Numbered from the stretch's first letter, positions 9,630-47,618 are shown. The stretch: 64,000 nt of DNA from Candidatus Anderseniibacteriota bacterium (GCA_046350855.1 JAXLZM010000002.1:14103-78102); one strand, 5' to 3'. Notes: generated by a model not told the origin, from the sequence alone. Program-made: numbers and translations.

Positions 9630-9740
<111 letters not shown>

Positions 9741-26555: not shown

Positions 26556-26702
26556 CTACTTTCCGACCACGACACGCCAGCGGCCTTTTTGCCGGCGACG
26601 ACGTAAAACTTTGCGTCCGCCCGTAGTGCGCATACGACTGCGGTAGCCGTGACGCTTGAGACGGCGCTTCTTTTTAGGTTGGTAGGTTCGCTTGGTTGCC
26701 AT
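26556..26702 (-). CDS. rpmH: 50S ribosomal protein L34 (48 aa); not in the supplied ORF track.
   Basis: Manual minus-strand translation gives [48 protein letters not shown]. Classic position immediately upstream of rnpA. Confidence 0.85.
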
Positions 26703-26920: not shown

Positions 26921-28336
26921 ATGGATCAAGAAAAAGTCTGGCAGGCAGCACTCTCGGAACTAGAACTCACCATCAGCAAGGCAAATTTTACGACGTGGCT
27001 CAAAAAAACCTGGATTAACACCCTCTCGGAGAACGAGGCCAACATTGGTGTACCCAACGCTTTTACTAAAGAGTGGCTCGAAAAAAAGTATCACAAGCAG
27101 ATCGTGACCGCCCTCAAGCACTGTACCGGCAGTCACATGTTTAAGGTGCTCTATGAGATCGGGACAAAGGTGCCCAAGCGCGAGATGGCCTCAGTTGCAC
27201 CAGCTTTAGTGCAGGCCGCGACGGGTCCCACGGCTAGTATGCAGTTGGGTGGCGCGGCTACACGGACTTCGGTGCATGGAAGTGTCAGTCTGGGCGGCTC
27301 AATTGATGATCAGAGCAATCTCAACCCGCGCTACACCTTTGAGACTTTTGTGGTGGGACCTTCTAACGAACTGGCACACGCCGCCTGCAGTGCGGTAGCC
27401 AACAACCCCGGTACAACCTACAACCCGCTCTTTATCTATGGGGGAGTAGGACTCGGCAAAACCCACCTCATGCAAGCGATTGGTAACGCGATCAAAAAGC
27501 GAAACCCAGAAAAAAAGGTTTGGTACGTCACAAGCGAGCGCTTTACCAATGAGTTCATCGACTCAATCAGTAATAAAGGCAGCAACTTTAAAAATCGTTA
27601 CCGCGATGTGGACGTCTTAATCGTGGATGATATTCAGTTTATTGCCGGTAAAGAACAAACACAGCAAGAGTTCTTCCATACTTTTAACACTCTGCATGGC
27701 AACAATAAGCAGATTATCCTCTCAAGCGACCGGCCTCCTAAAGCTATTCCTACCCTAGAGGATCGCCTACGCTCGCGTTTTGAGGGCGGCATGATTGCGG
27801 ATATTGGAGCACCCGAACTTGAGACACGCGAGGCGATTTTACGAGAGAAATGCCGGGTTAAGAGCTTTGAGGTAGAGGATAAGGTCATTACTTTTATTGC
27901 CGCTCATATTCAGCACAACATTCGTGAGTTGGAGGGCGCGCTCAACCGCGTGGTGGCTCACTGTCAGCTCAAAAAGCTTGTACCGACCACCGATATTGCC
28001 AAAAGTGTCTTAGCAACCATTATCGCTAATCCGCAGCGGCGAGGGATCGTTCCACGCCAAATCGTGGAGACGGTAGCGCAGTTCTACGATGTCTCAATTG
28101 AGGATTTAGTGGGGGCTTCTCGCAAAAAAGAGATTGTTCGTCCACGTCAAATTGCCATGTTTTTGATGCGCGAGGAGATTAAGGCGAGTTTTCCCTCAAT
28201 TGGTAACGAATTGGGTGGACGTGATCACACCACCGCCATGCACGCCACCGAAAAAATTACCAAAGAAGTCGATCGTGACGATGCCGTACGTCAAGAATTA
28301 GATTTGATTCGGCAACGGCTGTACGTTCCTCAGTAA
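26921..28336 (+). CDS. dnaA: Chromosomal replication initiator DnaA (471 aa).
   Basis: N-terminus MDQEKVWQAALSELE. AAA+ Walker A GGVGLGKTHL. C-terminal DNA-binding signature. Start moved from the ORF-track 26696 to 26921. Confidence 0.9.
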   Translation: MDQEKVWQAALSELELTISKANFTTWLKKTWINTLSENEANIGVPNAFTKEWLEKKYHKQIVTALKHCTGSHMFKVLYEIGTKVPKREMASVAPALVQAATGPTASMQLGGAATRTSVHGSVSLGGSIDDQSNLNPRYTFETFVVGPSNELAHAACSAVANNPGTTYNPLFIYGGVGLGKTHLMQAIGNAIKKRNPEKKVWYVTSERFTNEFIDSISNKGSNFKNRYRDVDVLIVDDIQFIAGKEQTQQEFFHTFNTLHGNNKQIILSSDRPPKAIPTLEDRLRSRFEGGMIADIGAPELETREAILREKCRVKSFEVEDKVITFIAAHIQHNIRELEGALNRVVAHCQLKKLVPTTDIAKSVLATIIANPQRRGIVPRQIVETVAQFYDVSIEDLVGASRKKEIVRPRQIAMFLMREEIKASFPSIGNELGGRDHTTAMHATEKITKEVDRDDAVRQELDLIRQRLYVPQ

Positions 28337-28640
28337 AAACTGTTTATAACCCAGTGGATTACCTGGTGTGTTCTCAGGTAAAAGCCGTGGGCTCTGTGCG
28401 GACAAAAAAACACAAAGACGTACCTACACAAACAGGTAAAACCAACAAGACTCAACTTTTCCTGAGTCACCCACAGATCGTACGCAGGGGTTATCGAGAA
28501 GTTGTTCACACAACGGTGCCCAATTTCTTAAGAAATTATTAGAACTGTATTAAAAAAATCTTAAAGAGCCGGGGTTGTCCCCACTCTCCACCGCACTATT
28601 ACTACAACTAGTTTAATTAATACCTATAAGATACGGATCT
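28337..28640. promoter_or_regulatory. oriC: oriC part 2: dnaA-dnaN intergenic region with degenerate DnaA boxes and an AT-rich candidate DNA-unwinding element.
   Basis: AT-rich tracts ttcttaagaaattattagaactgtattaaaaaaatcttaaag (28526..28566) and actagtttaattaatacctataag (28600..28630). Weak box-like sequences agtggatta, tgtgcggac and ttatcgaga. Confidence 0.5.
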
Positions 28641-29738
28641 ATGAAACTTGCCTGTACACAGGAGAACTTACAAAAGGGATTATCTATTGTTGGTCGTGTG
28701 GTGAGTCGCAATGCGACACTACCGGTCTTGGGTAATGTTCTTCTTAAAACTGAGACGGGTGGGCTTAAGTTAGTCGCAACCGATTTAGAAGTAGGCGTGA
28801 CCTGTATTGTGGGCGGTAAGGTCGAACAAGCTGGTGAGATTACCATTCCAGCACGTCTACTAGCTGAATACATTAATCAGCTGCCCCGCGAGCACGTGAC
28901 CCTCCATACTGACGGAAAAGAGTTACGCGTCGCTTGTCAGGAGACTAGTGCTGAGATTAAAGGAATTGGCGCAGACGAGTTTCCACTCTTACCCGCTTTT
29001 AAGTCGGTTTTTGAAGCGGTTCTGCCGGCGGATCAGTTTAAAGAGGCGATTAGCCAAGTGATTACCGCGGTAGCCCACGACGAATCTCGTCCAGAGCTCA
29101 CGGGGGTGTACCTTCAATTTGGAGCGGGTGGCTGTACTTTAGCGGCGACCGATAGCTTTCGCTTGGCCGAGCGTACCATTCCTGTTAAGGGAGCGGTCAC
29201 TGAGCGCGCTGTGATTGTACCGCTTAAAACCATGGCAGAAATTGGTCGAATTATTGAACCCGTTGATTCGGTGGTACTGCGACTTTCAGAAAATCAGATT
29301 AAATGTAGCTACAAGAATATTGAGTTAATTTCACGTCTGATTGAGGGTCACTATCCACCCTACAAAGATATTTTGCCCAAAAAACTACCAACGCGCTGTG
29401 TGGTAAATCGCGAAGAGTTTATTGGAGCGGTACGGTCAGCTGGATTATTTTCTAAAACCGCCGCCCAAGATGTAGTCGTCTCGGTTAACGCTGAGAAAAA
29501 ACAACTCCAAATCCAAGCCGAAGCCAATCAAGTTGGCGGCCACCACCAAAAATTAGCCGCCTCGATCTTGGGACCCTCTGACCGTGTCGTCTTTAACTAC
29601 CGCTACCTGGTCGAGGGACTCCAAACCTTTACCAGTGAAAAAATTATTTTTGAAACCGGGGGCAGTAGCAGTCCGGGGCAGCTGACCGCACCTGAGAGTA
29701 CGGGCTACCTCTACATTTTGATGCCCATAAAGGTCTAG
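28641..29738 (+). CDS. dnaN: DNA polymerase III beta sliding clamp (365 aa).
   Basis: N-terminus MKLACTQENLQKGLSIVGRVVSRNATLPVLGNVLL. Conserved dnaA-dnaN order. Confidence 0.9.
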   Translation: MKLACTQENLQKGLSIVGRVVSRNATLPVLGNVLLKTETGGLKLVATDLEVGVTCIVGGKVEQAGEITIPARLLAEYINQLPREHVTLHTDGKELRVACQETSAEIKGIGADEFPLLPAFKSVFEAVLPADQFKEAISQVITAVAHDESRPELTGVYLQFGAGGCTLAATDSFRLAERTIPVKGAVTERAVIVPLKTMAEIGRIIEPVDSVVLRLSENQIKCSYKNIELISRLIEGHYPPYKDILPKKLPTRCVVNREEFIGAVRSAGLFSKTAAQDVVVSVNAEKKQLQIQAEANQVGGHHQKLAASILGPSDRVVFNYRYLVEGLQTFTSEKIIFETGGSSSPGQLTAPESTGYLYILMPIKV

Positions 29739-29740
29739 AC

Positions 29741-30883
29741 GTGCAGCTGCGGTACCTTAGTCTGGAGCGGTTCCGCACCTACCAACACACGCGTGTTGCG
29801 TTTACTGCTACGGTGAGCGTGCTCGTGGGGCGTAATGCGGCGGGTAAGAGTAATCTTCTTGAGGCCCTCATGCTCCTCAGTACCACGCGCTCGCTGCGGG
29901 CTCGGGTAGAGTCGCAGTTGATCGCGCGCGGCTCGGATTCGGCGCGCATCGAGGCGGGCCTGACCCTCGAAGGCCGCGCCCAAGAACTCCTCTGTTTCCT
30001 GGACGCCCGTTCTGGCAGAACCAAAAAACTCTGGCGACTCCAAGGTGCTCCCAAAACCAGTCGTGCCGTAGTGGGACTCCTCACAACCTGCCTTTTTAAG
30101 CCCGAAGACGTCGATACCTTACAAAAAAGTAGTGCCGCTCGTCGCGCTGTCTTGGACCAGTTGCTCGTGGTGCGTAATCCCGAATTCTTTATGACTCTGC
30201 AGCGTTTGCGCGGTACGCTCCTGCAGCGCCAGCGTCTGTTGGAGCAGGCTCGGGCGGGACAGCGCGATGGTCTCGATGCCTATGACGAACCTCTCGTCCA
30301 AGACGGCGCACGTGTGTCCTTGGCACGTGCTCGTCTCGTTGCCACCCTAACCGAGCAGTTTGCTGAGTCTGTACGAGCCATCTCAGGTGCGAGCAAGACG
30401 ACACAAGCTGCCCTCACCCTGACCACTCCCGCCACCAATACCCTCCCCACCACACTAGAACAATGGATCGCCCTCTACCGTAGTCAAATTGCTGCCCTCC
30501 GTGAGCGCGAAGTTGCGGCCGCCCGTAACCTGGTTGGTCCACACCGCGAGGATCTTGTTTTGACGGTTAATACTATTGCGCTCCGAGAGTACGGTTCGCG
30601 TGGGGAGTGGCGCAGTGCCGTTTTGGGATTGCTCCTGGCCTCATGTACCTATCTCGAGCAGCTCACTGGTGAGCGCCCGCTCCTGCTTCTTGACGATGTG
30701 TTTTCTGAACTCGATCCGGCCCGGCGCGCCGCCCTCCTGCCGTACCTTACCCAACAGCAAACCCTCATTACTACCGCTGATGTAGGTGAGGTTCCCCCAG
30801 AACTGTTGCAACAAGCGCAACTCTTTACCATCGCGGATGGCACCATCACGCCCAAAGCTAAAACCCATGCGTTCGCTGCGTGA
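29741..30883 (+). CDS. recF: DNA replication and repair protein RecF (380 aa).
   Basis: Walker A GRNAAGKSNLLEA. C-terminal signature LLLLDDVFSELD. Confidence 0.88.
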   Translation: MQLRYLSLERFRTYQHTRVAFTATVSVLVGRNAAGKSNLLEALMLLSTTRSLRARVESQLIARGSDSARIEAGLTLEGRAQELLCFLDARSGRTKKLWRLQGAPKTSRAVVGLLTTCLFKPEDVDTLQKSSAARRAVLDQLLVVRNPEFFMTLQRLRGTLLQRQRLLEQARAGQRDGLDAYDEPLVQDGARVSLARARLVATLTEQFAESVRAISGASKTTQAALTLTTPATNTLPTTLEQWIALYRSQIAALREREVAAARNLVGPHREDLVLTVNTIALREYGSRGEWRSAVLGLLLASCTYLEQLTGERPLLLLDDVFSELDPARRAALLPYLTQQQTLITTADVGEVPPELLQQAQLFTIADGTITPKAKTHAFAA

Positions 30884-31180: not shown

Positions 31181-31528
31181 TTAATAGCGCTCTAACTCTT
31201 GCAAGCGCACCACAAAGAGGGTTGTGCCCCCTAAGGTCAGCCGGGCCGCCCCGACCGGTACGTCCACCTGTCCGGTTTCTTGGCCGAGCGAACTGATATC
31301 TGTACCACTCACCAAAGCACTCCGTTCTTTGCCGGCCGAACCCAAAATCTTTTTGAGATCCGCTAAGCGTTTTTCGTTGGGGAGACCGATAAGCAACGTC
31401 GCACTACGCTTACGCAAAAAACCACCCGAAGATCCCAGACGCGTAAAGACAAACTCTTGGGCGACCAGTCGCTTACGGACGGCGCCCTCGCGCGTGTGAT
31501 CTACAATTGCGATCGCTAAGAGGGCCAT
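31181..31528 (-). CDS. darA: Cyclic-di-AMP receptor protein DarA/PstA (PII-like, DUF970), 115 aa.
   Basis: Pattern AIVDHTREG..FVFTRLGSSGGFLRKRSATLLIG....VPVGAARLTLGGTTLFVV matches the B. subtilis DarA family signature (TTGGFL..GNTTL..G ... VGGATVFV). Confidence 0.75.
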   Translation of the reverse strand: MALLAIAIVDHTREGAVRKRLVAQEFVFTRLGSSGGFLRKRSATLLIGLPNEKRLADLKKILGSAGKERSALVSGTDISSLGQETGQVDVPVGAARLTLGGTTLFVVRLQELERY

Positions 31529-34320
31529 TACGGGATGGTAATACTTTTTTGTTTAGTACCGATGTTACCGGCGGCATCTTCTACGGTCAGGGTCACCGTG
31601 TAGGTCCCGGCGCTTGTATAGGTGTGGCTGGTAGTTTTGCCGCTGCCCGCACTGCCATCTCCAAACGTCCAGGCATACGAGACGATCCCAGTGTTATCCG
31701 TCGAGGCACTTGCATCAAACGAGGCAACCAGCGCAGCAACCGCAGAGGTAAAGCTCGCTTTAGGTTTTTGGTTATCGACCTTAATGTTGACGTCGATGGC
31801 CGTCTCAGCTTTGCCGCCGTACTTGTCGGTCACGACCGCCGAGATGGAATGAAATCCGTTAGAGACGTTAACCGGAAATGTCACGGTGTACGGCGCGGCC
31901 GTTGCGGTGCCCACGATGCCACCGTCGAGTGCAACGTCCACCACACTGACCCCCGCCAAGGCGCGTGCACTCACTACCACCGTCAACGAGGACGAGGTGA
32001 CGTTGGCGCCCGAGCTTGGCTGCGCAATCGAAATACTCGGCTGAACTTCTTTAGCACCGTACGGGCTGGTCTCTTTGGGTATGCCACCGGTCTTTTTACC
32101 CTTACTCCAGGCATTGACGGCTGCCTCCCAGTTTTTGTACTGAGGGTCCTCAGAGGGGTTGCTTGGGTAGGGTCCTTGCGGATCGTCTTTGTAGACATAG
32201 TGCAAGATGGAGTGGTACTCCACAAATTCTTTTTCTTCGACATAGTTGGCCGGTAAATCTTCGGGCGCCAACTTGCCGTCAATTTTACTGACACGCACCT
32301 TTTGTCCCTTGCCCCCAGCTTGGCCGGCCAGGATCGGCTTAGGTGCGGGGATCGGTTCTGGATCGGGATACCACTCGGCCTTGGTGTCTTTGAGCGCGGC
32401 CAGCATAAATTGGTGCTCGATTGGGGCCGCCGTAAAAGATCCATCTCCTCCCGGGAAGGGTTTGTTGTCGTTGTTACCGACCCACACGCCGACCGCCAGC
32501 TGCGGTACGTAGCACATGGTCAAGCCGTCGGTGTTGTTCTCGGTCGTTCCGGTTTTACAGGCGATTTTGCGATCGGGCAACGTCAACGGACCACCCGAAC
32601 CAAAAATCGGCGCGCGTGCGGCATCATCCGAGAGCACGTTGCTCATAGTCAACGCCACGTTGCGGTCGAGGACTTGTTCACCCTGGGGTTGTTTAAACTC
32701 ATCCAAGACCTTGCCACTGGGGTCCTCAACTTTGAGCCAGAGCGCTCGGGGAACACGCTTACCTTGGTTGGCAAAAACGCCAAAGGCGGCCGTGTGATCG
32801 ATTAGCTTAACTTCACCAGCACCCAGTCCAACCGCCAAGCCGTACTGTGACTTGTCTTGCAAATCTGTAATGCCCATTTTGTGGACCTGGTCGATCACAT
32901 TCTCCACGCCAGCTAAGTACATAGTTTGCACGGCCGGAATGTTGAGCGACATTTGCAAGCTCGAGCGCATGGTCAGAGGCCCGCGCTGGCCCTTGTCATA
33001 GTCCTCAGGTTTGTAATTGCCGCCAAAATCCGTGCGCACATCAAACAAAATCGTGCTAGGTGGGTAGCCTTTAGCAAAGGCGGCCGAGTATTCGTACGGC
33101 TTAAAGGACGAACCCGGCTGTTGCAAGGTGCGCGTCACATCCACCGATCCGTCGATCGAGTCATTAAAGTAATCCTTAGAACCCACGTGGGCCATGACTT
33201 GACCACTGCGTGGATCGATGGCGGTCAGGGCGGCGTTTTCTACTCCGTACTGGGCGAGATTACGGGCGGCGCCATCTTTGACGGCCTGTTCTGCCGCTTT
33301 TTGCATATCCAAATCCAAGGTGGTCGTCACGCGTAAGCCTCCACGTTCCACGACCTGCTCGCCGTACTGCTCGATCAGCGCGTCCTTAACCCAAAAGACA
33401 AAGTGAGGTGCTTTGATCTCGATATTGACCTCTTCAAACGTTAGTTTGACCGCCTTGGCTTTGTCAGCCTCGTCCTGACTAATAAAACCGAGCTTTGCCA
33501 TGCGATCCAAAATGTAATCTTTACGGTCTAAGAGCTGGTCCTTGTTGGGGCCGTAAGGGGAGAGCGAACTTGGGCGCTGCGGGAGTGCTGCTAGGGTGGC
33601 CGACTCAGCCAAGCTCAAGTCCTTGGCATCTTTATTAAAGTAGGTTTGCGCGGCCGCCTCGATCCCGTAGGCGTTGGAGCCGTAGGGAATCTCGTTGAGG
33701 TAGAGGTGTAAAATTTCGTCCTTGGTAAAGCGGCTCTCGATCTCGATCGCCAAGATGACCTCTTTAATTTTGCGGGAGAGGGTGTGCTCGTCGGTCAGGA
33801 TGGCGTTTTTAACGAGTTGCTGTGTGATGGTCGAACCACCCTCGCTCGATTTACCGGTGACGTTGCGGAAGAGGGCTCGCAGAATACCTTTAAAGTCCAC
33901 GCCGTGGTGGTGGTAAAAGTCCGCGTCCTCTACTGCCACCGTGGCTTTTTTGACCGAGTCCGGAATTTGGTCAAAGGGGATGCTGGTGCGGCGCTCCTCA
34001 TCGTAAATTTCGTAGAGAATAGTTTTGCCGTCGCGGGCATAAATTTTGGTCGACTCGGTCGCGGCGCGATTTTTGAGCTCGGTGCCGTTGGGGAGGTCTT
34101 TAGTAAAATAGGCAAAGAGGCTGCCGATCGTCACGATTCCAAGGACGACGATGGCTACTCCAATTTTGAGCGCCAAGCGCTTCCACTCCTGTTTTTTGTT
34201 GGCCCGACGGGAACGCTTACGAGCAATGTGGGTCGCGACGGTACGCTCGCGCTCACGCCGCGCTTGGCGCGAGGCGTGTAGATGCCCGTTTCGACTAAAG
34301 CGACGAAAGGCTGCTACCAT
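31528..34320 (-). CDS. Class A penicillin-binding protein (PBP1A-type glycosyltransferase + transpeptidase) with a C-terminal Ig-like region ending in a PKD domain; 930 aa.
   Basis: GT51 motifs EDADFYHHHGVDFKGILRA and TITQQLVKN. Transpeptidase motifs SSFKP and KTGTT. C-terminal PKD segment SYAWTFGDGSAGSGKTTSHTYTSAGTYTVTLTVEDAAGN. Confidence 0.88.
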   Translation of the reverse strand: MVAAFRRFSRNGHLHASRQARRERERTVATHIARKRSRRANKKQEWKRLALKIGVAIVVLGIVTIGSLFAYFTKDLPNGTELKNRAATESTKIYARDGKTILYEIYDEERRTSIPFDQIPDSVKKATVAVEDADFYHHHGVDFKGILRALFRNVTGKSSEGGSTITQQLVKNAILTDEHTLSRKIKEVILAIEIESRFTKDEILHLYLNEIPYGSNAYGIEAAAQTYFNKDAKDLSLAESATLAALPQRPSSLSPYGPNKDQLLDRKDYILDRMAKLGFISQDEADKAKAVKLTFEEVNIEIKAPHFVFWVKDALIEQYGEQVVERGGLRVTTTLDLDMQKAAEQAVKDGAARNLAQYGVENAALTAIDPRSGQVMAHVGSKDYFNDSIDGSVDVTRTLQQPGSSFKPYEYSAAFAKGYPPSTILFDVRTDFGGNYKPEDYDKGQRGPLTMRSSLQMSLNIPAVQTMYLAGVENVIDQVHKMGITDLQDKSQYGLAVGLGAGEVKLIDHTAAFGVFANQGKRVPRALWLKVEDPSGKVLDEFKQPQGEQVLDRNVALTMSNVLSDDAARAPIFGSGGPLTLPDRKIACKTGTTENNTDGLTMCYVPQLAVGVWVGNNDNKPFPGGDGSFTAAPIEHQFMLAALKDTKAEWYPDPEPIPAPKPILAGQAGGKGQKVRVSKIDGKLAPEDLPANYVEEKEFVEYHSILHYVYKDDPQGPYPSNPSEDPQYKNWEAAVNAWSKGKKTGGIPKETSPYGAKEVQPSISIAQPSSGANVTSSSLTVVVSARALAGVSVVDVALDGGIVGTATAAPYTVTFPVNVSNGFHSISAVVTDKYGGKAETAIDVNIKVDNQKPKASFTSAVAALVASFDASASTDNTGIVSYAWTFGDGSAGSGKTTSHTYTSAGTYTVTLTVEDAAGNIGTKQKSITIP

Positions 34321-34402: not shown

Positions 34403-35131
34403 ATGTCCGGGCACTCCAAATGGGCCACCACTAAGCGCCAAAAAGCCGTTGTCGACGCTAAGCGCGGCAAGGTTTTTACCAAGTTAGCTAACGCCATCGC
34501 GCTGGCGGCCCGCCAAGGTGGGGGCGACCCGGCCGCCAACCCCAACTTACGTCTCTTGGTCGATAAGGCACGTGAGGCCAACATGCCGGGGGCCAACGTT
34601 GAGCGCGCCATCAAGCGCGGCACGGGACAGCTCGAGGGGGTTACCTTTGAGGAGTTCACCTACGAGGCGGCCGGTCCGGGTGGCAGTGCATTTATTATTG
34701 AGGGCGTGACCGATAAAAAAACCCGCACGGTTGCGGATGTCCGACAGCTCCTCACCCACCACGGTGCAAAACTGGCCGCCGCGGGTAGTCAGCTCTGGCA
34801 GTTCCAACGTCTGGGGCGCTTGCAAGTACCCCTCGCAGCAGACCAATCTGCAACGATGCAACTCGAGCAAATACAACTCGAGATGATTGAACTTGGCGCG
34901 CAAGACGTGCAGACCCAAGCGGGCGGATTGCTGGTGTATGTTCAGCCGGGTCAACTGGGAGCTATGCGCCAAAAACTGAGCGCCAAAGGGTTTACCGCGA
35001 GCGAAGCCAGTTTGGTTTTTGTACCGACCAATCGGATCGCCTTGCCGGAGGCTGAACATACACGTGCGCAGGAGATCTTGACTGCACTAGAAAATCACGA
35101 CGACGTTCAGCAAGTTGCGGTAAACTTTTAG
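34403..35131 (+). CDS. yebC: YebC/PmpR family DNA-binding transcriptional regulator (242 aa).
   Basis: N-terminus MSGHSKWATTKRQKAVVDAKRGKVFTKL. Start moved from the ORF-track 34151 to 34403. Confidence 0.88.
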   Translation: MSGHSKWATTKRQKAVVDAKRGKVFTKLANAIALAARQGGGDPAANPNLRLLVDKAREANMPGANVERAIKRGTGQLEGVTFEEFTYEAAGPGGSAFIIEGVTDKKTRTVADVRQLLTHHGAKLAAAGSQLWQFQRLGRLQVPLAADQSATMQLEQIQLEMIELGAQDVQTQAGGLLVYVQPGQLGAMRQKLSAKGFTASEASLVFVPTNRIALPEAEHTRAQEILTALENHDDVQQVAVNF

Positions 35132-35133: not shown

Positions 35134-35604
35134 ATGGTGGTGATAGGCATTGACCCAGGGATCGAGCGTACTGGCTACGCGGTTGTTGAGATTGATGGAC
35201 ACGCGGTGCGTGCTCTCGAGTACGGCTGCATTTCTACCACCGCACACATGCCGATGGGTCAACGCTTGGCTGAACTCCGACAGGATCTAACCCAGGTGCT
35301 CACTACACACAAACCGGTCGCGGCCGTGATCGAACGACTCGTCTTTGTACACAATGCGACCAGTGCGCTGGCCGTCGGGCAAGCGCGCGGGGTGATTATG
35401 TTGACGCTGCACGAGCACGGACTGACCGTCCGCGAGTACTCGCCGACCGAGGTAAAACGTGCCGTGACCAGTAATGGCGCTGCGGATAAGCAGGCGGTCG
35501 GACAAGCCGTTAGGCTCATCTTTGGTCTGGAGCGCGTTCCCACGCCAGATGACGCAGCTGACGCTTTGGCCCTCGCCGTGTGCCATGCCGGACAGGTACA
35601 ATAA
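35134..35604 (+). CDS. ruvC: Holliday junction resolvase RuvC (156 aa).
   Basis: VIGIDPGIERTGYAVVE catalytic N-terminus. Conserved yebC-ruvC order. Confidence 0.88.
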   Translation: MVVIGIDPGIERTGYAVVEIDGHAVRALEYGCISTTAHMPMGQRLAELRQDLTQVLTTHKPVAAVIERLVFVHNATSALAVGQARGVIMLTLHEHGLTVREYSPTEVKRAVTSNGAADKQAVGQAVRLIFGLERVPTPDDAADALALAVCHAGQVQ

Positions 35605-35612
35605 GGAGACCC

Positions 35613-37160
35613 ATGAAGCTTCGCTCGTTTACCTTGGCCACACTACTCCTACTGCTGACATTCACTCTGTCGGTCGGTCTGCCACTTACGGTCTTGGCCC
35701 AAGCAGCACAGCCGACCACGCCGACCCCCACTCCCGAGCTCAAAGCTAACGCGGGTCCCGATCGTGAGGGTCTCGTCGATCAAGAGTTGGACTTTGATGC
35801 CGTCCTCGAAAATCTGCCCGAGGGCACCAAGGCAACGTTTGCTTGGAGCTTTGGTGATCAAACTGGTCAAGCGCAGGGCGATCGCGTCCGCCACACTTAC
35901 CATGACATTGGTCGTTACAAGGTGACCCTCACTGCCACGACTCCGACGGCGACCGTGAGCGACAGTGCGGTCGTGACGATTTATGAGCGCAGTTTGATCG
36001 TGATCACCGATACGGCTACCGACGCCAACCAAGAGAGTGAACTCAAGCGTCAAGCCGATCGCTCCGATACACAGCTCATTATCCTAGCGGACCGCGCAGG
36101 CAGCACCGATTTTGTGCGGCAAGATAATTTGTCGCGTATGTTGCTCGATCGCGCGGCCGATCTGCGTCGGGCGGACGCCTTGATCGACTGGACTACAGGA
36201 GACACCGGTCTCAACGCCCTCACCAAATTTGCGCAGCAGGTTCCCAATCTGCAGGACCTACGTCTGAGTGACAAGCCGATCATTAGTTTGGCGGCGCCCT
36301 TCTCGGTTATCTCGCGCATCGCGCAAAGTACCTTTGATATTCTCAAGCCCAAGTACATTTTGTTGACCAGTTCTACCGCGCTGGATGCGGTGATCGAGGC
36401 CGCTAGCTCCGATCAGATCCTCAACCGCGTCCAACAGACCGGTAACGAGTATCGCTTGATCGGGACTTTTTCTGAGCGAGCTATCTCGGATCTGACCCCG
36501 CTCAACCTCATGTCTTTTTTGGTCAACTTTATGATCAACAAGGGTGTGCCGGTTAATACTATCGTGCTGATCCTGATGTTGCCGATCATTGCGACGATCT
36601 TTGCCTTTGCCCGCCAGATCGTGGGACTGCGCGCTTTTGGTATTTACATCCCGACCATCGTGACCCTCTCTTTTTTGGCGCTCGGTCTGACCTACGGTTT
36701 GACCGTCTTTTTTGTGGTGTTGGCAGTGGGAACACTCTTTAGAGTGCTCTTGCGGCGCATTCGTCTGGCCTACGTGCCGCGTCTTGCTATCGTGCTCACG
36801 ACCATCGCCTTTGCGATTTTGGGATTGCTTGCAGTCGGCGCCTACACCAACCAGACCACCTTTGTGGCGCTAGCGATCTTCCCAATTTTGATCATGGTGG
36901 CTTTGGCAGAACAATTTGTCTCAGCCCAGATCGAGCAAGGGTTTAGTGCCGCGGTCCTCTTGACCGTCGAGACCTTGGTGCTCTCGATCGCGACCTACTA
37001 CTTAGTCAGTTGGGATCCGTTCCAGAGTTTGATTTTGGCTTACCCCGAGTTGATTCTGCTCACCTTTATCATCAACATTTTGCTCGGGCGTTGGACCGGG
37101 CTGCGACTTATGGAGTACTACCGGTTCCGCCAAGTCCGTCGCTTTGCTAAGTTGCCCTAA
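35613..37160 (+). CDS. Signal-peptide protein with an extracytoplasmic PKD-like domain and a C-terminal ~7-TM domain (515 aa). Predicted membrane partner of the downstream ATP-grasp ligase; resembles the '7TM receptor / inactive transglutaminase-like' proteins found with RimK-like ligases.
   Basis: RBS aaggag, ATG at 35613. Signal MKLRSFTLATLLLLLTFTLSVGLPLTVLAQA. PKD-like segment FAWSFGDQTGQAQGDRVRHTYHDIGRYKVTLTAT. Seven hydrophobic helices in the last ~230 aa. Confidence 0.6.
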   Translation: MKLRSFTLATLLLLLTFTLSVGLPLTVLAQAAQPTTPTPTPELKANAGPDREGLVDQELDFDAVLENLPEGTKATFAWSFGDQTGQAQGDRVRHTYHDIGRYKVTLTATTPTATVSDSAVVTIYERSLIVITDTATDANQESELKRQADRSDTQLIILADRAGSTDFVRQDNLSRMLLDRAADLRRADALIDWTTGDTGLNALTKFAQQVPNLQDLRLSDKPIISLAAPFSVISRIAQSTFDILKPKYILLTSSTALDAVIEAASSDQILNRVQQTGNEYRLIGTFSERAISDLTPLNLMSFLVNFMINKGVPVNTIVLILMLPIIATIFAFARQIVGLRAFGIYIPTIVTLSFLALGLTYGLTVFFVVLAVGTLFRVLLRRIRLAYVPRLAIVLTTIAFAILGLLAVGAYTNQTTFVALAIFPILIMVALAEQFVSAQIEQGFSAAVLLTVETLVLSIATYYLVSWDPFQSLILAYPELILLTFIINILLGRWTGLRLMEYYRFRQVRRFAKLP

Positions 37161-37185
37161 CCTGCGGTCACGCCGCTGATTCGCC

Positions 37186-38694
37186 ATGGCCCAAAAACTC
37201 TCAATCCTCGGGATGAACGCACGCAACCTGCGTTTTTTGCGGCCCTACAACCGACGCCGAGCTGTACGTGTGGCAGATGACAAGCTGCTGACCAAGCAGG
37301 TCCTCGACCAGCACAGCATTCCCAACCAGCGGCTCTTTGCGGTCATTACCAGCTCACGGGATCTCAAGGGTTTTCGCTGGGAAAAACTACCGAGTTCGTT
37401 TGTAATCAAGCCCAACCGGGGTCTAGCCGGGGGTGGGATTATCGTAATCCGGCACAAAAAAAAGGTGCCCAAGGGTACAGAACTGACCTACATCGCCTCC
37501 GATCGCTCCGAGTGGACTATTACACAGTTGGAGGAACATATCCGCGACATTTTGGATGGCCGGTTCTCCCTGACTAACTCTCCGGACCTCGCCTTTATTG
37601 AAGAGCGGATCAAGTTACACCCCGCCTTTGAAGAATTTACCTATCGCGGCATCCCAGACATCCGCGTGGTGGTGTTTAACGGAATTCCGGTCATGGCGGC
37701 CGTGCGCTTGCCCACCGCTAAGTCTAAAGGTAAGGCTAACATTGCGCTGGGTGCCGCGTATCTCGGGATCGACTTGGCTACGGGCGCAGCCACTAACGCT
37801 GTACTCAAAAAACCGCGACGGCGCTTTATCACGCACCATCCCGACACCGGGGCCGACTTGTTGCAACTGCGCGTGCCGTACTGGGATCAGATTTTGGAGA
37901 TCGCGCTCAAATCTAGTGAGGCGAGTGGATTGCGCTACATCGGAGCGGACATCGCCCTGGACCGTGACAAAGGTCCGGTCGTAATGGAGCTTAACGCACG
38001 CCCAGGACTCGAGATCCAGTTGGCTAACCTCGCACCACTGGGTAGCCGTTTGGAACGGGTCGAGGGGATCAAGGTAGGTGACACTCAAAAAGCCATTCGT
38101 TTGGCTAAAGATCTTTTTGGGGGCGACATCGAACGTTTGGTCGAGGACCTCTCGCACCGGCACGTCTTGGGCATCGTCGAGTCGGTCGAGTTGGTCAGTC
38201 GCTCCGGACAGCGCACCAAGACCTATGCCAAGGTCGATACGGGCGCGGGCTTTACTTCGATCGACGTTGAGCTGGCCACTAAAATTGGATTCACCAAGGT
38301 ACGCTCGGTAATTAAGGAGTACAAGCTCAACCGTGTTTTGACCGGCCGCGAAGCCCGTGAACTCAGCAAGACCGCCCGCGCCAAAATCCTCAAAACCTAT
38401 ACAGAAATCGTCGGTACCGCGCTGGTGCACTCAAGCCACGGCTCGACTTTTAGATTGCTCGTCCCGATTACCTACTATTTAGCGGGGGTTAAAGTTACGA
38501 CGCGAGCCACCATCGTCGAGCGCGAGGAGCTAGACTATCCCATGATCATCGGGCGGCGTGACCTAGAGAACTTTTTGATCGACCCCACCTTGCAGCGCGA
38601 CGTAAAGCCCGAGCCAGGTAGGGCGCCCCGCGCCAGCCGCCCAGCAAAACCGCTGCCGCCAAAGTCGCCCACTCCAGCAGGTGGCCAAGGTTAG
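37186..38694 (+). CDS. RimK-type ATP-grasp peptide ligase (alpha-L-glutamate ligase-like) fused to a C-terminal retropepsin-like aspartic protease domain (PF05618-like); 502 aa.
   Basis: ATP-grasp motifs FVIKPNRGLAGGGIIVI, DIRVVVFNGIPVMAAVRLP and RYIGADIALD..GPVVMELNARPG. C-terminal domain carries the aspartic protease signature AKVDTGAGFTSID (D-T-G-A). Confidence 0.75.
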   Translation: MAQKLSILGMNARNLRFLRPYNRRRAVRVADDKLLTKQVLDQHSIPNQRLFAVITSSRDLKGFRWEKLPSSFVIKPNRGLAGGGIIVIRHKKKVPKGTELTYIASDRSEWTITQLEEHIRDILDGRFSLTNSPDLAFIEERIKLHPAFEEFTYRGIPDIRVVVFNGIPVMAAVRLPTAKSKGKANIALGAAYLGIDLATGAATNAVLKKPRRRFITHHPDTGADLLQLRVPYWDQILEIALKSSEASGLRYIGADIALDRDKGPVVMELNARPGLEIQLANLAPLGSRLERVEGIKVGDTQKAIRLAKDLFGGDIERLVEDLSHRHVLGIVESVELVSRSGQRTKTYAKVDTGAGFTSIDVELATKIGFTKVRSVIKEYKLNRVLTGREARELSKTARAKILKTYTEIVGTALVHSSHGSTFRLLVPITYYLAGVKVTTRATIVEREELDYPMIIGRRDLENFLIDPTLQRDVKPEPGRAPRASRPAKPLPPKSPTPAGGQG

Positions 38695-40393
38695 GCCCAG
38701 TTTGAACTAAAGCCGCGCCGGTCTTAGTACCAGAGCTTATATCGCTTGTCGCACGCGGGGCCACGACGACCTGCTCGCCTGAGCGCAAGACGATCCCGCT
38801 GACCGTGACCAGACTGCCTTTTTTGGGAGCGGCTGCGCTAATACCCGTAGTTTTACGAACAGAAACGAGCGTGCTCTTTTGGTTAGCACTCGCGGTAGCA
38901 CGCGCTACTCTAAAAGATTTACCGCTCCGGGAACTGACCTGTCCTTGCAAGCGTACCGCCTGTCCAAGCAGACTTTCGTCCACTCCACCCGGTTGCACCA
39001 CGCGGTAGCTGACTTTGGCCCTACCGGTCACTACCAAGCTAGTCGCGAGTATCCGCGGCTGGTGAGCGTAGCTTTCGAGTTTGCCCACGATCGTGACCGT
39101 ATCGCCTATGGCCGCCCGCGTCTCGGAGGAGACTTTGGCGAGTGCGGCACCGCTCGGGTCGGAGAGGTGCAGAGTATCTGTATAAAACGTCCCGCGGGCG
39201 GCACTCACTACGCCTTGGACGCTCACTAGGGTACCCTCGGCCTCTGAGGCGAGATCCGCCAAGTGCGGGATCTCGGTTGCGTTCTCCTCAGTCTCCTGGA
39301 CAGCCTCTGGGGCTGCCTCCTCACCCGTCTCATCAGTCGCATCCTGCGCATCACTCGATTGGGGGCTAGCGGGTTCATCCAAGATGTTATGCGCACCGGG
39401 CGTTGGTGCAACCGTCCAGGCAAACCCCTCCTCAAAAGCTGCCCAACTTTGGTCACTGATCGCATTGGTATAGGTGGTTTTGTCGAGCACGCTAGCCGGC
39501 GTGGGTAGCTGCCAGAGTAGCTCAACCGTGTCGCCGTCGTTATTGAGGGAGAGGCCGGTCGTGGGCTTAGTCAACGCGGTGTAGCTGCCTGCCGCAAGCG
39601 AACCACTCAAACGCACCGTTTTGCCGGAGGCGTCCCGCAGAGCCAGGGTACTCAGATCGAGGGCTTGCGGACTTGCGTTGTAGAGCTCCACAAATTCCTG
39701 GGCGCTACTGGGATTAGGCAAAAGCTCTGAGAGTATTACTTGAGGCGCAGTAGGAGGGGGAGCCTGGTGGACCAGCCACCCCAGTGACCGACTCGCACCC
39801 GGAGCTAACTCGGTCAAGCCCGTCGGCCCCAGTTCACGGGCCAGGGTGACTTCGCTGCCGGGGTCGCTCGACCAGGCATATAAATCGCAGTTTGTCCCGT
39901 CGGGCGCTACAATACCGGCTGCGTCACTCGTATTGGCCAGAGACAAATTCCCTGTACTCGTTTTGAGGAGCAGGATGCCATCGCTCGAATCGGATTGCAG
40001 AATTTCCGCGTTGTATTCACCGGCGTAGTCTTTATCGAGCACTAACCCAACTTGCCCCGGTGCGAGCAGTAAGCCGCTGGCCCCAAACTGCAAGCTCGTC
40101 CCAAACTCCACTAAACTCTGTTGTAGGTTGGAGCCATCGATAAAGTGGTACTTCGTCAGATCGACCGGAGTAGCCCCGCTGTTATAGAGCTCTAACAGTT
40201 CGCCCGTGTTCTCGTTGAGGGCATTGGGCAAAATCTCGCTTAAGCGGATGGGACAGGTGGTCAAACCGCCAGGGCTACTTGGACCGAGGGCCAGGGCGGC
40301 CAGCGGCGGGGCGGCGGCCAGTAGGCTGAGTGTGAGGCTAAGGAGGCTGTGCACTGCAAGGCGCCGATAGAGAGAGTGGTTCATGTGGACCAC
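38546..40393 (-). CDS. Secreted protein with two lamin-tail domains (LTD) and a C-terminal hydrophobic anchor (615 aa).
   Basis: Signal peptide MVHMNHSLYRRLAVHSLLSLTLSLLAAAPPLAALA. LTD motifs LSEILPNALNENTGELLELYNSGATPVDL and ILSELLPNPSSAQEFVELYNASPQALDL. C-terminal LLEWATLAAAVLLGGW. 3' end overlaps the convergent ATP-grasp gene by 149 nt. Confidence 0.65.
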   Translation of the reverse strand: MVHMNHSLYRRLAVHSLLSLTLSLLAAAPPLAALALGPSSPGGLTTCPIRLSEILPNALNENTGELLELYNSGATPVDLTKYHFIDGSNLQQSLVEFGTSLQFGASGLLLAPGQVGLVLDKDYAGEYNAEILQSDSSDGILLLKTSTGNLSLANTSDAAGIVAPDGTNCDLYAWSSDPGSEVTLARELGPTGLTELAPGASRSLGWLVHQAPPPTAPQVILSELLPNPSSAQEFVELYNASPQALDLSTLALRDASGKTVRLSGSLAAGSYTALTKPTTGLSLNNDGDTVELLWQLPTPASVLDKTTYTNAISDQSWAAFEEGFAWTVAPTPGAHNILDEPASPQSSDAQDATDETGEEAAPEAVQETEENATEIPHLADLASEAEGTLVSVQGVVSAARGTFYTDTLHLSDPSGAALAKVSSETRAAIGDTVTIVGKLESYAHQPRILATSLVVTGRAKVSYRVVQPGGVDESLLGQAVRLQGQVSSRSGKSFRVARATASANQKSTLVSVRKTTGISAAAPKKGSLVTVSGIVLRSGEQVVVAPRATSDISSGTKTGAALVQTGPNLGHLLEWATLAAAVLLGGWRGAPYLARALRRAARWGRSKSSLGHAAR

Positions 40394-43057: not shown

Positions 43058-44131
43058 ATGTCGATGCTGCAGCTGCCTTTGCCGGGCAGCGAAAAGTTTT
43101 TTCCTGAGACTGACTTTGATCGAGCTCGTGTTGAGCATTACGTCGGCCAGATCGAGCCGACCTTGCGACCCTGCCAGATCCAGCCAAGTGTGGTCGTGGA
43201 GATTCTCTGCAACCCAACTCCCTTTTGGAAACGCACCATAAAGGTGGACCACGTAAAGTGCAAGACGCGCATCTGCTGGTCTCCCCTGGTACAACTGCGC
43301 AAGATCCAACGAGCCTTGCTCTTGCAACTGCGATTGCCGAAAGGGTTTCCATCTATGGCGTTTGAACCTGCAGATTCGATCATCTGGAACGCGCGTTGTC
43401 ACATCGGTAACAAAGCCAGTTTGATGGTCGATCTCAAAAATGCCTACGAGTCGATCAAAACCAAGCATGTGCAGCGCTACCTCAGGCGAGAACAATACTG
43501 CAGTAAGGCCGAGGCTTGGGTGATCGCGCGGCTCATAACCTATCGAGGTCTCTTGCGTATGGGAGCGCCCATCTCCGGATGGATCTTTAACGCCATGTTG
43601 TACCGTTTTGACCAAGAGGTACTTACGGTGTTTGGAGCACCGACGATAGCGATGCGGCATGATGACGAGTCCAGTGTCAGTCTGTTCTACAAAGCTGGTA
43701 GAAAGCCGCGCCCCCACAGTCATGGGATCGTGTACACGCGCTATGCGGACAACCTCTGCATTTCTGTACCAGGTACGTGGGTGAGAGGGATCACCGAAAA
43801 CATGCTTGAAAAAGTCCTTGCACGTCATCATCTCACGCTCAACCCCGACAAAACGGTACATGGGCACAATGGTCGCTTGTTCTTTCCTGGCATTGAGCTA
43901 TCTGACAACAAGATCTATCCCAACATGGACTACCTTTCTTGGTTTGCCTATCAGTTCCACTTAAAGCAGTTACTGCCTCAGCAGCTCATGGGGCACCTCT
44001 GCTACCAGCGTATGTTTGGTGACAGCGTCTACCAGGATCTTCGGCAAGCGTTTCCGACGCCAGGAGGTGAGGACGCTTTAGCTGAACTACCGATGTACTG
44101 GCAGATGGAAGATCCGTATGAAAACTGCTGA
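43058..44131 (+). CDS. Reverse transcriptase, compact (357 aa), retron-like; no maturase, endonuclease or other fused domain.
   Basis: RBS aggagg 7 nt upstream. RT motifs: KRTIKV...SPLVQLRKIQRALLLQL (motifs 0/1, retron-type LKxIQ), NARCH (retron NAxxH), LMVDLKNAYESIK (motif A), GAPISGWIFNAMLY (motif B'), IVYTRYADNLCISV (motif C, reading Y-A-D-N rather than YxDD), LTLNPDKTV (motif D). Confidence 0.85.
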   Translation: MSMLQLPLPGSEKFFPETDFDRARVEHYVGQIEPTLRPCQIQPSVVVEILCNPTPFWKRTIKVDHVKCKTRICWSPLVQLRKIQRALLLQLRLPKGFPSMAFEPADSIIWNARCHIGNKASLMVDLKNAYESIKTKHVQRYLRREQYCSKAEAWVIARLITYRGLLRMGAPISGWIFNAMLYRFDQEVLTVFGAPTIAMRHDDESSVSLFYKAGRKPRPHSHGIVYTRYADNLCISVPGTWVRGITENMLEKVLARHHLTLNPDKTVHGHNGRLFFPGIELSDNKIYPNMDYLSWFAYQFHLKQLLPQQLMGHLCYQRMFGDSVYQDLRQAFPTPGGEDALAELPMYWQMEDPYENC

Positions 44132-45644: not shown

Positions 45645-47618
45645 TTAGCGTGTCAATTTAAACTTGGAGAGCGGCTGAAAAGCTGACAAAAATTCACGTT
45701 GCCGCACAACTTTGTGGGTTTTGTCATCGGTCACCGTGTAGGTAAAGCTGGTCGTGCCACCGCCGGCCGGGCTACCGCTCAAACGGTAGGGGCCATCGAT
45801 TTGGGTGGTTCTGCCTGGATCGGTGCCATAGATATCGACGTGGGCCATGTAGTCCTCGTCCAGGTAGGCCATGATCAAAATGTACCCCTCGGTGTCGTTG
45901 ATAAAACGTAGGTCGGGGTGATCATCGTAGAGCGTGGCCTCCACCCCCCAGTCGCCGTAGGGCCAGAGGTAGTGGTCCACCACAAAAGCGTGGTTTTGGC
46001 GCTCGGTGATCTCAAAGCCCGCGTCGAGGGCGGCTCTAAAGAGGGTCGTACCCACTTGGCACAGTCCACCGCCGTACTCGGGTCGGATCTTGTTGCCGGT
46101 GATGACCAACTCTGGTACGTAGCCGTTGTAGCCATCGATCGGCGCGATGGCTTGGATCGTCGAGAATTCTTGGCCAGGAGCCACGACCAATCCGCTCAGT
46201 AACTCAAAACCGCGGTTGATATTATGGATCCGGTTGAACGAACTATTGGTCGAGTCACTGATGCCACGGGCGATGAGCGTCTTAATGCCAAGCTCGTCGA
46301 TGACATCCTCGTTGATGGCGGGCTTTTTTTCGACCAAGCTTAGTTTGACGCTCGGCTTGTCGGTCGCAATGCTAAAGAGGGCGTCCTCGACCGCCGCATC
46401 CAAATCAACACCCGTGCCGGCTTTACTCGGCTGGGTCACTTTGACTTGGCCTTTTTCAAAAGCGAGACGGGCATTTTGACCTTCGATATCGAGTTCCGCT
46501 GCGGGGTGCGCGAGGAGCCAGTGGGTCAGGCCGTCGCGATTGAGGCCAACCACCGCCATCGCTTTGCCTCGTTTGAGTTCGGGAGCACTTGCTCTATTGA
46601 GACCGGTAAAGTTTTCGCGGGGGAGCAGCACGATATAGGGGTCGGTAGCCTTGTCGCCGCGCCGCTTTTGATCAAAGGGAGTCACGACCAGTGACGGCAA
46701 GGTGGCGCTGTCCGGAACAATCTCTTCACCGCGCTTCTTTTTTGGCTCTGGCAGACCACAGGCGCAACTCGCTTTACCCTGCACGTTCTCGGGTGTGATT
46801 GACATAAATTCTAACCACCCGCCAATCTCGTCACGCGTGGGGGAGTAGTTTTTTTCTTTGTAGTAAAAGTTGAGCTTGGAGTCGAGCAGTTGCTCCGCGA
46901 GAGCCTGACTAGCCGCTAATTGCTCCGGCTGAACCTCTGGCTGGGTCGGCCCGAGACTCAATTGTAAATCTGTGTGCGACAATGTTTGCGCATTGCTTTG
47001 GAGCGTTTGATAGGCCGGCTCCCGAATAATTTCGTTACCGAGTTCTGGCTTGAGTTGTGTCAGTTTGCCGTTTGCGTAGGAGAGGCGTGCATCTTTGGCG
47101 GGTTTTTCGATGGTCAAAAAGGCCGTCTCAAACATGCCGTCTAGAGTGTCGCGATCAAAGTTGGCTACGACCGGCAGATGCCCACCGCCAAACGCTACAG
47201 AAACCTGCGCCGCTACATTTTTAAACTTATTTTGGTCGTGTCCCAAATCGTAGGCGGCGGCCACACTTGCGGCAACGTTAATGGTCAAACCGAGATCCTG
47301 CGCGGAGAGCTCAAAGCGCTTGGCCTCGCCCGACTCAGCGGTACCAGTAAAGACAAACGGTTTAGCTAAAAAAGCGTCAACCGCTTTTTGCAGCAGTACA
47401 GTTGCCTCCTCACGAGTTTTGCCGCTCACGTCCACGCCCCCGACCGACATGCGGGGGAGCATGGCCGGATCCTCTGCTACATCCAGTGACCAAGCGGCGG
47501 CACCGGTGCCGGAGCCTAGCGTTACGAGCGAGACGACCAATACAACAAACCACTTGCTTGCTGCCCAGTGGGTTGTCTCGACCTTTTTATTTTTCACCGT
47601 GTTTTTTATGTTCTCCAC
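45645..47618 (-). CDS. VanW family protein (657 aa): N-terminal TM anchor, repeated beta domains, C-terminal VanW domain.
   Basis: VanW signature GGGLCQVGTTLFRAALDAGFEITERQNH. N-terminal hydrophobic anchor. Confidence 0.75.
   Translation of the reverse strand: MENIKNTVKNKKVETTHWAASKWFVVLVVSLVTLGSGTGAAAWSLDVAEDPAMLPRMSVGGVDVSGKTREEATVLLQKAVDAFLAKPFVFTGTAESGEAKRFELSAQDLGLTINVAASVAAAYDLGHDQNKFKNVAAQVSVAFGGGHLPVVANFDRDTLDGMFETAFLTIEKPAKDARLSYANGKLTQLKPELGNEIIREPAYQTLQSNAQTLSHTDLQLSLGPTQPEVQPEQLAASQALAEQLLDSKLNFYYKEKNYSPTRDEIGGWLEFMSITPENVQGKASCACGLPEPKKKRGEEIVPDSATLPSLVVTPFDQKRRGDKATDPYIVLLPRENFTGLNRASAPELKRGKAMAVVGLNRDGLTHWLLAHPAAELDIEGQNARLAFEKGQVKVTQPSKAGTGVDLDAAVEDALFSIATDKPSVKLSLVEKKPAINEDVIDELGIKTLIARGISDSTNSSFNRIHNINRGFELLSGLVVAPGQEFSTIQAIAPIDGYNGYVPELVITGNKIRPEYGGGLCQVGTTLFRAALDAGFEITERQNHAFVVDHYLWPYGDWGVEATLYDDHPDLRFINDTEGYILIMAYLDEDYMAHVDIYGTDPGRTTQIDGPYRLSGSPAGGGTTSFTYTVTDDKTHKVVRQREFLSAFQPLSKFKLTR

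Follow-up and report, generated by a model that had tools for sequence, protein, structure and literature searches.

A predicted relative of the Rlo system, with ligase and protease on one chain, beside yebC and ruvC in Candidatus Anderseniibacteriota

Why a bacterium should encode, side by side, an exported seven-transmembrane (7-TM) protein and a cytoplasmic enzyme that joins a ligase to a protease is the question raised by two genes of Candidatus Anderseniibacteriota bacterium. They lie in a stretch of 64,000 nucleotides (GCA_046350855.1 JAXLZM010000002.1:14103-78102), referred to here as the window, directly after yebC and ruvC. Gene 1 (35613-37160, +) codes for the exported protein and gene 2 (37186-38694, +) for a RimK-related ATP-grasp ligase followed by a retropepsin-like domain; both open reading frames (ORFs) are located where an original prediction, made from the sequence alone, had placed them. 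That prediction had seen in the pair an association of ATP-grasp, 7-TM protein and retropepsin for making and trimming peptide or poly-amino-acid chains, and this general idea holds. It is proposed here that the locus is related to the Rlo system of Pseudomonas aeruginosa, and that its products could form a membrane-tethered enzyme acting on acidic chains.

The N-terminal part of gene 2 is an ATP-grasp ligase of the RloC type. It matches PF14397 (ATPgrasp_ST) with E 1.3e-66 and 225 bits, the cut-off of the profile being 31.4 bits. TIGR02291 (alpha-L-glutamate ligase-like), which had been suggested as a test together with PF05618, is the best NCBIfam family of gene 2, but both profiles stay under their cut-offs (263 bits against 314 for TIGR02291; 21.1 against 27 for PF05618, aligned to aa 330-470 of gene 2 taken alone). 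The models of the RimK family also score gene 2 below cut-off (TIGR00768, 56 against 143 bits; PRK10446, 20.8 against 331). In Foldseek searches the best structural matches of the ligase domain were ArgX/LysX, RimK and cyanophycin synthetase, all of which extend the C-termini of peptides or proteins, or amino-acid polymers; the graspetide ligase PsnB was ranked lower. It was found that D255, E268 and N270 fall on the positions of D248, E260 and N262 in E. coli RimK, which we take to be the Mg2+ ligands of that enzyme, and that all three are invariant in 44 homologues. By this alignment the catalytic residues of the ligase are intact. Inspection of the sequence showed neither a signal peptide nor a transmembrane segment in gene 2.

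The top 50 Foldseek matches of gene 2 in the PDB all fell on the ATP-grasp domain, and hence the protease domain was tested by profile searches instead. A profile built from the C-terminal domains of 20 homologues matches 9g58 (E 8e-7) and 9g59, two RloA crystal structures published by Lormand et al. in 2025 (PMC12239564), then Legionella 2pma and, more weakly, the retropepsins Ddi1 of eukaryotes and ApRick of Rickettsia. For most homologues the match to PF05618 is precomputed. The sequence AKVDTGAG is coded at 38227-38250; D351, G353 and A354 occur in 44 of 44 homologues and T352 in 43. A second motif, IIGR(R/K)(D/N), which in gene 2 reads YPMIIGRRDL, is invariant or nearly so in homologues, with G456 the same in all 44. 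The model of the domain shows a beta-rich fold, the IIGR motif being followed by a short helix. With DTGA and IIGR on such a fold, the C-terminal domain is most probably a clan AA retropepsin-like protease. The residues that handle the substrate in RloA could be compared as well. The polyglutamate-binding residues of RloA are K46, R114 and R137, and replacing either arginine (R114A, R137A) makes the protein non-functional (PMC12239564). They align with K349 (K or R in 44/44), R423 (44/44) and R446 (44/44) of gene 2, and the spacing between the two arginines, 23 residues, is identical in RloA and gene 2 in the profile alignment. Between the DTG and R423 the model places a three-helix insert (aa 361-404). 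There is no cysteine in the sequence of the protease domain. The ligase is thus not an ordinary RimK devoid of a protease, and the fusion of the two on one chain, as originally described, is real.

The signal peptide, PKD domain and seven TM helices that had been ascribed to gene 1 were all recovered. A Pro/Thr-rich linker follows the signal peptide; Pfam aligns PKD_4 to aa 45-120, and the best Foldseek matches of the PKD domain are the PKD domains of collagenases. Next comes an alpha/beta domain in which beta and alpha elements alternate, predicted with a local distance difference score (pLDDT) above 90 in the AlphaFold2 (AF2) model. Searched as a separate domain it had no sequence match in Pfam or the PDB, and among 1.84 billion proteins searched it was present in only 137 representative clusters, nearly all of the same architecture. 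The membrane part matches PF14402 (7TM_transglut) over aa 317-508 (E 1.7e-29). Hydropathy and the positive-inside rule give seven TM helices with the N-terminus outside and the C-terminus inside; the loops and tail predicted to be cytoplasmic contain 12 lysines and arginines, the outer segments none. In the homologue alignment the acidic TM residue E433 is invariant and E453 nearly so. A cytoplasmic loop is also conserved, and the protein ends in a basic cytoplasmic helix, in which G496, L497, R498, E501, R504 and F505 are invariant in 51 homologues, and its GLRxxEYxRFR motif is common to gene 1 and RloB by hhalign. The AF2 model as a whole (pLDDT 82.5) consists of an N-terminal hydrophobic helix, the beta PKD domain, the alpha/beta domain (aa 126-295) and a helical membrane region. 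A transglutaminase-like domain, for which the original prediction had suggested testing gene 1, was found neither by Pfam, NCBIfam and ectodomain sequence searches nor by Foldseek and in the AF2 model. The NCBIfam RloB model aligned to gene 1 over model positions 312-504 only, and the protein can probably be called RloB-like within its 7-TM core only. Pfam and NCBIfam gave no match of the 7-TM protein to a transporter family.

It was the NCBIfam models named RloB and RloA3 that pointed to the Rlo paper. The rloABC genes of P. aeruginosa (retropepsin-like osmotic stress tolerance) have been characterised structurally and genetically (Lormand et al. 2025, mBio, PMC12239564). RloA is a secreted retropepsin, RloB an inactive-transglutaminase-7TM protein and RloC a cytoplasmic ATP-grasp protein (PMC12239564). 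When all three RloA paralogues are missing, cells do not survive in low-salt medium, and cell shape, biofilm and beta-lactam tolerance are affected; deletion of rloB or rloC suppresses this toxicity (PMC12239564). RloA and its cytoplasmic homologue RimB cleave polyglutamate (PMC12239564, PMC7343187). The statement that such associations remain uncharacterised is thus only partly true: the trio no longer is, whereas the product of RloC and the job of the 7-TM protein are open questions (PMC12239564).

A canonical rloABC operon was found on the Legionella adelaidensis plasmid NZ_LR134414.1 (locus L086) and was used for direct comparison. Its proteins carry PF05618 with a signal peptide, PF14400 plus PF14402, and PF14397. 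Gene 2 is 40% identical over aa 3-281 to the Legionella RloC (E 7e-65). The 7-TM profile of the candidate phyla radiation (CPR), the group to which the host belongs, aligns to aa 310-504 of the Legionella RloB with a probability of 99.5% (E 2e-22, hhalign), and positions invariant in the CPR proteins are common to it, including the C-terminal G.R..E..RF motif. The protease profile aligns with the Legionella RloA (hhalign, E 1.7e-6), and the DTG and the three basic polyglutamate-binding positions of RloA are retained in gene 2. In both systems the genes are adjacent and co-oriented. The homology of all three modules to RloA, to the 7-TM part of RloB and to RloC indicates that the locus is a genuine relative of Rlo, in a fused, transglutaminase-less form with a cytoplasmic protease. 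The differences are equally clear. The CPR protease is fused to the C-terminus of a cytoplasmic ligase and has neither signal peptide nor cysteine, whereas RloA is a separate periplasmic protein with a signal peptide and a disulfide. Gene 1 has no PF14400; it carries the PKD and the novel alpha/beta domain instead, and most CPR partners carry no ectodomain at all. There are two genes in the order 7TM then ligase-protease, but three in Rlo in the order protease, 7TM, ligase. The host too is different, being a CPR bacterium, whereas 96% of RloB matches are in Proteobacteria (PMC12239564).

The locus is not peculiar to this genome. In a scan of one genome per species at least 541 loci encode a relative, and the best 80 of them are consistent with CPR metagenome-assembled genomes of Andersen-, Moran-, Kuenen-, Falkow-, Kerfeld-, Pacei- and Dojkabacteria; some automated taxon labels of these loci ('Bdellovibrionales', 'Bathyarchaeia') look unreliable. 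The 120 best-matching homologues of gene 2 come from CPR lineages, are nearly all 456-513 aa long (one has 797 aa) and cover at least 91% of the query. Gene order was counted in 83 non-redundant related loci, smaller denominators being the loci with enough flanking sequence. The protease domain follows the ligase in frame in 83/83, and thus ligase and protease on one chain are the rule in CPR/Patescibacteria. The 7-TM gene is directly upstream in 73/80 when gaps are judged strictly; in a looser reading of the hit tables a 7-TM match lies just upstream everywhere except in L060, whose ligase starts 210 bases from the end of the locus. On the same strand further upstream are ruvC (64/71) and yebC (49/62), and a PBP1A homologue is found downstream on the same strand in 48/63. 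This order of yebC, ruvC, 7TM and ligase-protease is kept in distant CPR lineages in which the ligase is only 43-49% identical. It is therefore an old syntenic block and a conserved core locus of the CPR, and not an insertion after yebC and ruvC as originally suggested. Likewise the pair does not replace ruvA: no RuvA domain was found in any scanned ORF of at least 150 aa in the window, and the arrangement is ancestral in CPR. The PKD and alpha/beta ectodomain is present in 17 of 71 loci only, the usual partner being a 7-TM-only protein of about 218 aa. As the ectodomain is missing from most partners, sensing of an extracellular cue through it, which had been proposed for such systems, cannot be the general mode of action.

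A further observation bears on how the parts are arranged. An unannotated ORF of 584 aa on the Halobacterium sp. DL1 plasmid CP007061.1 (106091-107845, reverse; 3164-4918 in locus L088) is a fusion of the 7-TM protein to the ligase, with PF14402 at aa 51-243 and the RloC-type ATP-grasp PF14397 at aa 286-557, and has no protease domain. In it an EYYRF motif ends the 7-TM domain, and the N-terminal motif of the ligase follows about 40 residues later. The ligase-protease fusion of the CPR and this archaeal fusion are independent, and they argue for physical contact of the three parts. Together with the N-out/C-in topology, both fusions would place the ligase on the cytoplasmic side, beside the conserved helix that ends the 7-TM protein, and with it the CPR protease.

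The most likely function, which we hold with slightly better than even confidence, is that of an enzyme tethered to the membrane which makes acidic (polyglutamate) chains and trims them. The ligase would dock on the 7-TM protein from the cytoplasmic side and, using ATP, would attach glutamate (or other acidic) residues singly through alpha linkages, either to an acceptor or as a free peptide. The fused retropepsin domains could dimerise between ligase subunits and cut the polyglutamate chains; such trimming would limit chain length and recycle glutamate, as RimB does for RimK. The 7-TM partner may localise, gate or regulate the activity, or it may hand the product to the envelope. By analogy with the Pseudomonas genes, a role in envelope or osmotic homeostasis could be imagined. 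The analysis itself shows what the domains are, that the catalytic and polyglutamate-binding residues are intact, and the topology, fusions and conserved gene order; glutamate as substrate, the acceptor, the protease dimer, the docking of the ligase on the 7-TM protein and the physiological role are inferred. The basic charge of both domains of gene 2 (mean net charge: ligase +18.6, protease domain +5.8) was counted in favour of polyglutamate recognition. The C-terminus of the 7-TM protein was considered as the acceptor of glutamylation and rejected as a general one: none of the 7-TM partners in 85 sampled loci ends in -EE and only 4 end in a single acidic residue, and the clade of the window ends in -AKLP. 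Of the PKD-type homologues of gene 1, however, about one third end in -EE or -EEE, among them many of the more distant ones (P0195-P0240, some labelled Peregrinibacteria; for example ...KHAEE and ...HLQEE). Such ends resemble the Glu-Glu C-terminus of ribosomal protein S6, which RimK extends.

Several points weigh against such a function. None of the RloC-type ligases has a known biochemical activity, so that glutamate rests on inference from the partner protease and from RimK. The protease of Pseudomonas is periplasmic, and losing it proves toxic only in the presence of RloB and RloC (PMC12239564), which suggests that the product there lies outside the cytoplasm. The CPR protease is cytoplasmic, and thus the logic of Rlo is not transferable unchanged; this is the main tension. 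PF05618 and TIGR02291 are, as said above, both under their curated cut-offs. The strong positive charge may be general to the proteins of this organism. The models are monomeric and unable to show a retropepsin dimer or docking on the 7-TM protein, and the predicted three-helix insert replaces the disordered flap of RloA, so specificity could differ.

Other systems of this kind offer a comparison. Cyanophycin synthetase with cyanophycinase, and PgsBCA/CapBCA with its depolymerase, also pair a polymer-forming amino-acid ligase with a dedicated hydrolase, and the Pgs/Cap synthase is membrane-associated. Cyanophycin synthetase is one of the top structural matches of the ligase, and paralogues resembling the G domain of CphA occur in related loci. 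But the membrane components and hydrolases of these systems are of other folds and families, no homology of gene 1 to cyanophycin or Pgs/Cap systems was detected, and PgsB is a Mur-ligase-type enzyme making gamma linkages. The Rim system likewise pairs a ligase of the alpha-L-glutamate-ligase-type ATP-grasp fold with a cytoplasmic PF05618 protease, a pairing made permanent here by fusion, and in being cytosolic, with neither signal peptide nor cysteines, the gene 2 protease is closer to RimB than to RloA. The ligase, however, falls outside the RimK family by the curated model, and a near-obligate 7-TM membrane partner, which Rim does not have, is found here; there is also no RimA/EAL gene at the locus. 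RimB is a polyglutamate-specific protease acting with RimK, and the ligase and the protease are reported to interact directly (PMC7343187).

With these likenesses in mind three other explanations have to be weighed. It could be that an acidic peptide or polymer, or a modified wall precursor, passes through the 7-TM protein, or is presented by it, to the wall and acts there with the neighbouring PBP1A, and that the protease serves as cytoplasmic quality control only; this seems rather unlikely to us. In its favour, the PBP1A gene recurs downstream of the module (in the window it is adjacent, on the opposite strand), and in 50 of 63 loci at least one extra ATP-grasp gene lies between the ligase-protease and PBP1A. 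These extra ATP-grasps number one to three and are RimK-like (127 bits), like the G domain of cyanophycin synthetase (305 bits) or GshB-like; a GNAT acetyltransferase is often, and a GT4 glycosyltransferase sometimes, beside them (for example L001 7392-11768, L003 7397-9368 and L045 9390-11875). They are missing from the lineage of the window, and no such paralogue was seen among the window ORFs scanned. The PKD domain of the window ectodomain can be read in the same sense, PKD domains being common in surface and glycan-binding proteins. The rlo mutants of Pseudomonas, moreover, show defects of cell shape, of beta-lactam sensitivity and of survival under hypo-osmotic conditions, and RloA is a secreted protein (PMC12239564). 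But the conserved acidic TM residues E433 and E453 are ill suited to a polyanion channel, most 7-TM partners have no ectodomain and no transporter family was matched. The order of genes near the replication origin of small CPR genomes may also be inherited and not functional.

It appears very unlikely that the pair adds and trims glutamates on S6 (RpsF) as a RimK/RimB-type ribosome modifier, with the 7-TM gene a mere neighbour. The cytoplasmic protease devoid of signal peptide and cysteines would fit, as would the presence of RimK among the best structural matches and of yebC, which has been linked to translation, in the same operon. RimK and RimB do interact and act as a ligase-protease pair (PMC7343187). 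Against this, gene 2 scores 263 bits on the RloC-type TIGR02291 and 56 on the RimK model TIGR00768, whose cut-off is 143, and is 40% identical to an RloC. The 7-TM gene is an almost obligate neighbour and is fused to the ligase in an archaeon, and some relatives carry beside the module a distinct gene that matches RimK better (127 bits). None of the ORFs scanned matched rpsF, although no search aimed at it was made. Still less can be said for a maturation cluster of a ribosomally synthesised and post-translationally modified peptide (RiPP) or graspetide, or for anti-phage defence, in which the ATP-grasp would be a macrocyclase, the protease would remove a leader and the membrane protein would export; we give it almost no credence. 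ATP-grasp, protease and membrane protein are a common RiPP layout, and PsnB was among the lower-ranked matches. But the gaps of 9 nt between ruvC and gene 1 and of 25 nt between gene 1 and gene 2 leave no space for a precursor gene within the operon, the best matches are of the RimK/LysX/CphA type and not graspetide ligases, and PADLOC gave no defence-system match. The genes stand in a core-genome block by yebC and ruvC near dnaA, which is no variable island, and GC content across the locus is unremarkable.

The features of the locus are collected in Table 1. The Shine-Dalgarno sequence of gene 1 overlaps the stop codon of ruvC, and gene 1 is therefore probably translationally coupled to ruvC. 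A scan for promoters and terminators was uninformative: it gave no promoter, and terminator-like sites were as frequent as expected by chance. The PBP1A gene of the window sits shortly before yebC on the opposite strand, and ruvB and a bPH-domain gene lie downstream, also on the opposite strand; this is the gene set of Moranbacteria, rearranged. The orthologue of the window PBP1A in the related locus L005 carries Transgly, Transpeptidase, Big_7 and PKD. The C-terminal PKD of the window protein is of the same domain type as that in the gene 1 ectodomain, and the protein has an Arg/Lys-rich N-terminal stretch of about 50 residues ahead of its hydrophobic membrane segment.

Table 1. Coordinates of the two genes, their domains and signals, and the neighbouring genes of the block (positions in the window)
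Feature	Position	Strand	Remarks
yebC (TACO1/YebC family); opens the conserved block	34403..35131	+	Pfam PF20772 + PF01709
ruvC, directly upstream of gene 1	35134..35604	+	Pfam PF02075, E 5.5e-46
Class A penicillin-binding protein (PBP1A-like) with C-terminal PKD domain, recurrent neighbour of the module	31528..34320	-	L005 syntenic orthologue
Shine-Dalgarno AGGAG of gene 1	35604..35608	+	4 nt ahead of ATG at 35613; overlaps ruvC stop codon
Gene 1, exported PKD + alpha/beta ectodomain + 7-TM protein	35613..37160	+	515 aa
Predicted Sec-type signal peptide, gene 1 aa 1-31 (...VLAQA/AQP)	35613..35705	+	hydrophobic segment aa 3-32; model helix aa 4-21
PKD domain, gene 1 aa 45-122	35745..35978	+	PF18911 (PKD_4) E 7e-15; PF00801 E 1e-9
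Lineage-specific alpha/beta ectodomain, gene 1 aa 124-297 (~170 residues)	35982..36503	+	AF2 model
Seven-TM bundle, gene 1 aa 314-493, N-out/C-in	36552..37091	+	PF14402, hhalign, hydropathy
Conserved basic cytoplasmic C-terminal helix, gene 1 aa 494-515, GLRxxEYxRFR motif	37092..37157	+	homologue alignment
Gene 2, cytoplasmic ATP-grasp ligase fused to retropepsin-like protease	37186..38694	+	502 aa; starts 25 nt past gene 1
RloC-type ATP-grasp ligase domain, gene 2 aa 13-293	37222..38064	+	PF14397 (ATPgrasp_ST), E 1.3e-66, 225 bits
RloA/RimB-type retropepsin-like domain, gene 2 aa 324-470	38155..38595	+	profile search, hhalign, model
Catalytic D351-T352-G353	38236..38244	+	translation, homologue conservation
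Non-conserved Pro-rich C-terminal tail, gene 2 aa 473-502	38602..38691	+	pLDDT <50; missing from most homologues

Gene 2 overlaps a convergent lamin-tail-domain (LTD) gene (38546-40393, -) by 149 nt, within its low-confidence tail, and the orthologous pair in L005 overlaps by 74 nt. The module is close to the probable origin region, with dnaA, dnaN and recF (26696-30883) 5-9 kb upstream; a LexA gene is at 23292-23909. Just past ruvB there is a reverse-transcriptase ORF (RVT_1, 43058-44131, +), which has the same relative position in L005. Genes of glutamate metabolism in the window are a short glutamine-synthetase-like ORF (9832-10899, -) and glutamate dehydrogenase (19943-21442, +). CWB2 cell-wall-binding repeats occur in two large proteins (6614-9442, +; 53456-55579, -), and with a VanW/PG_binding_4 protein (45645-47618) they point to a Gram-positive-type wall. 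The window also holds a 23S rRNA gene interrupted by a group I intron and carrying a LAGLIDADG endonuclease ORF, and the 5S rRNA (1-3656, 1832-2053, 2355-2819, 9631-9740); the 5S rRNA lies about 6 kb from the 23S with protein-coding ORFs between them.

Proteins identical to gene 1 and to gene 2 exist at NCBI, but their public names, '7TM domain-containing protein' and 'sugar-transfer associated ATP-grasp domain-containing protein', hide the relationship to Rlo. A search of the literature by Pfam/TIGRFAM accessions, and by CPR together with RimK/ATP-grasp, found no description of the CPR form. CPR lineages, whose members are for the most part uncultured, have very small genomes, and their envelope biology is largely unknown; retention of the module at a fixed position across these lineages suggests an important housekeeping role. 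A bolder possibility, which we regard as distinctly unlikely, is that nearly all CPR inherit the module vertically as a core machine, in which 7-TM protein, polyglutamate-type ligase and trimming protease form one membrane-bound complex. Synthesis of the chain would take place at the inner face of the membrane, on the 7-TM protein or beside it, possibly with threading outward, thus coupling envelope growth (PBP1A) or turgor to cytoplasmic glutamate. If this were true, the two fusions would reveal how the whole Rlo family works, and a new kind of membrane-coupled peptide-polymer system would extend across bacteria and archaea. Apart from that possibility, the CPR form, with ligase and protease on a single chain and in relatives a minimal 7-TM partner of 218 aa, would be convenient for reconstitution. 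It also shows that a cytoplasmic site of action is open to the protease, and so restricts the places in which models can locate the product.

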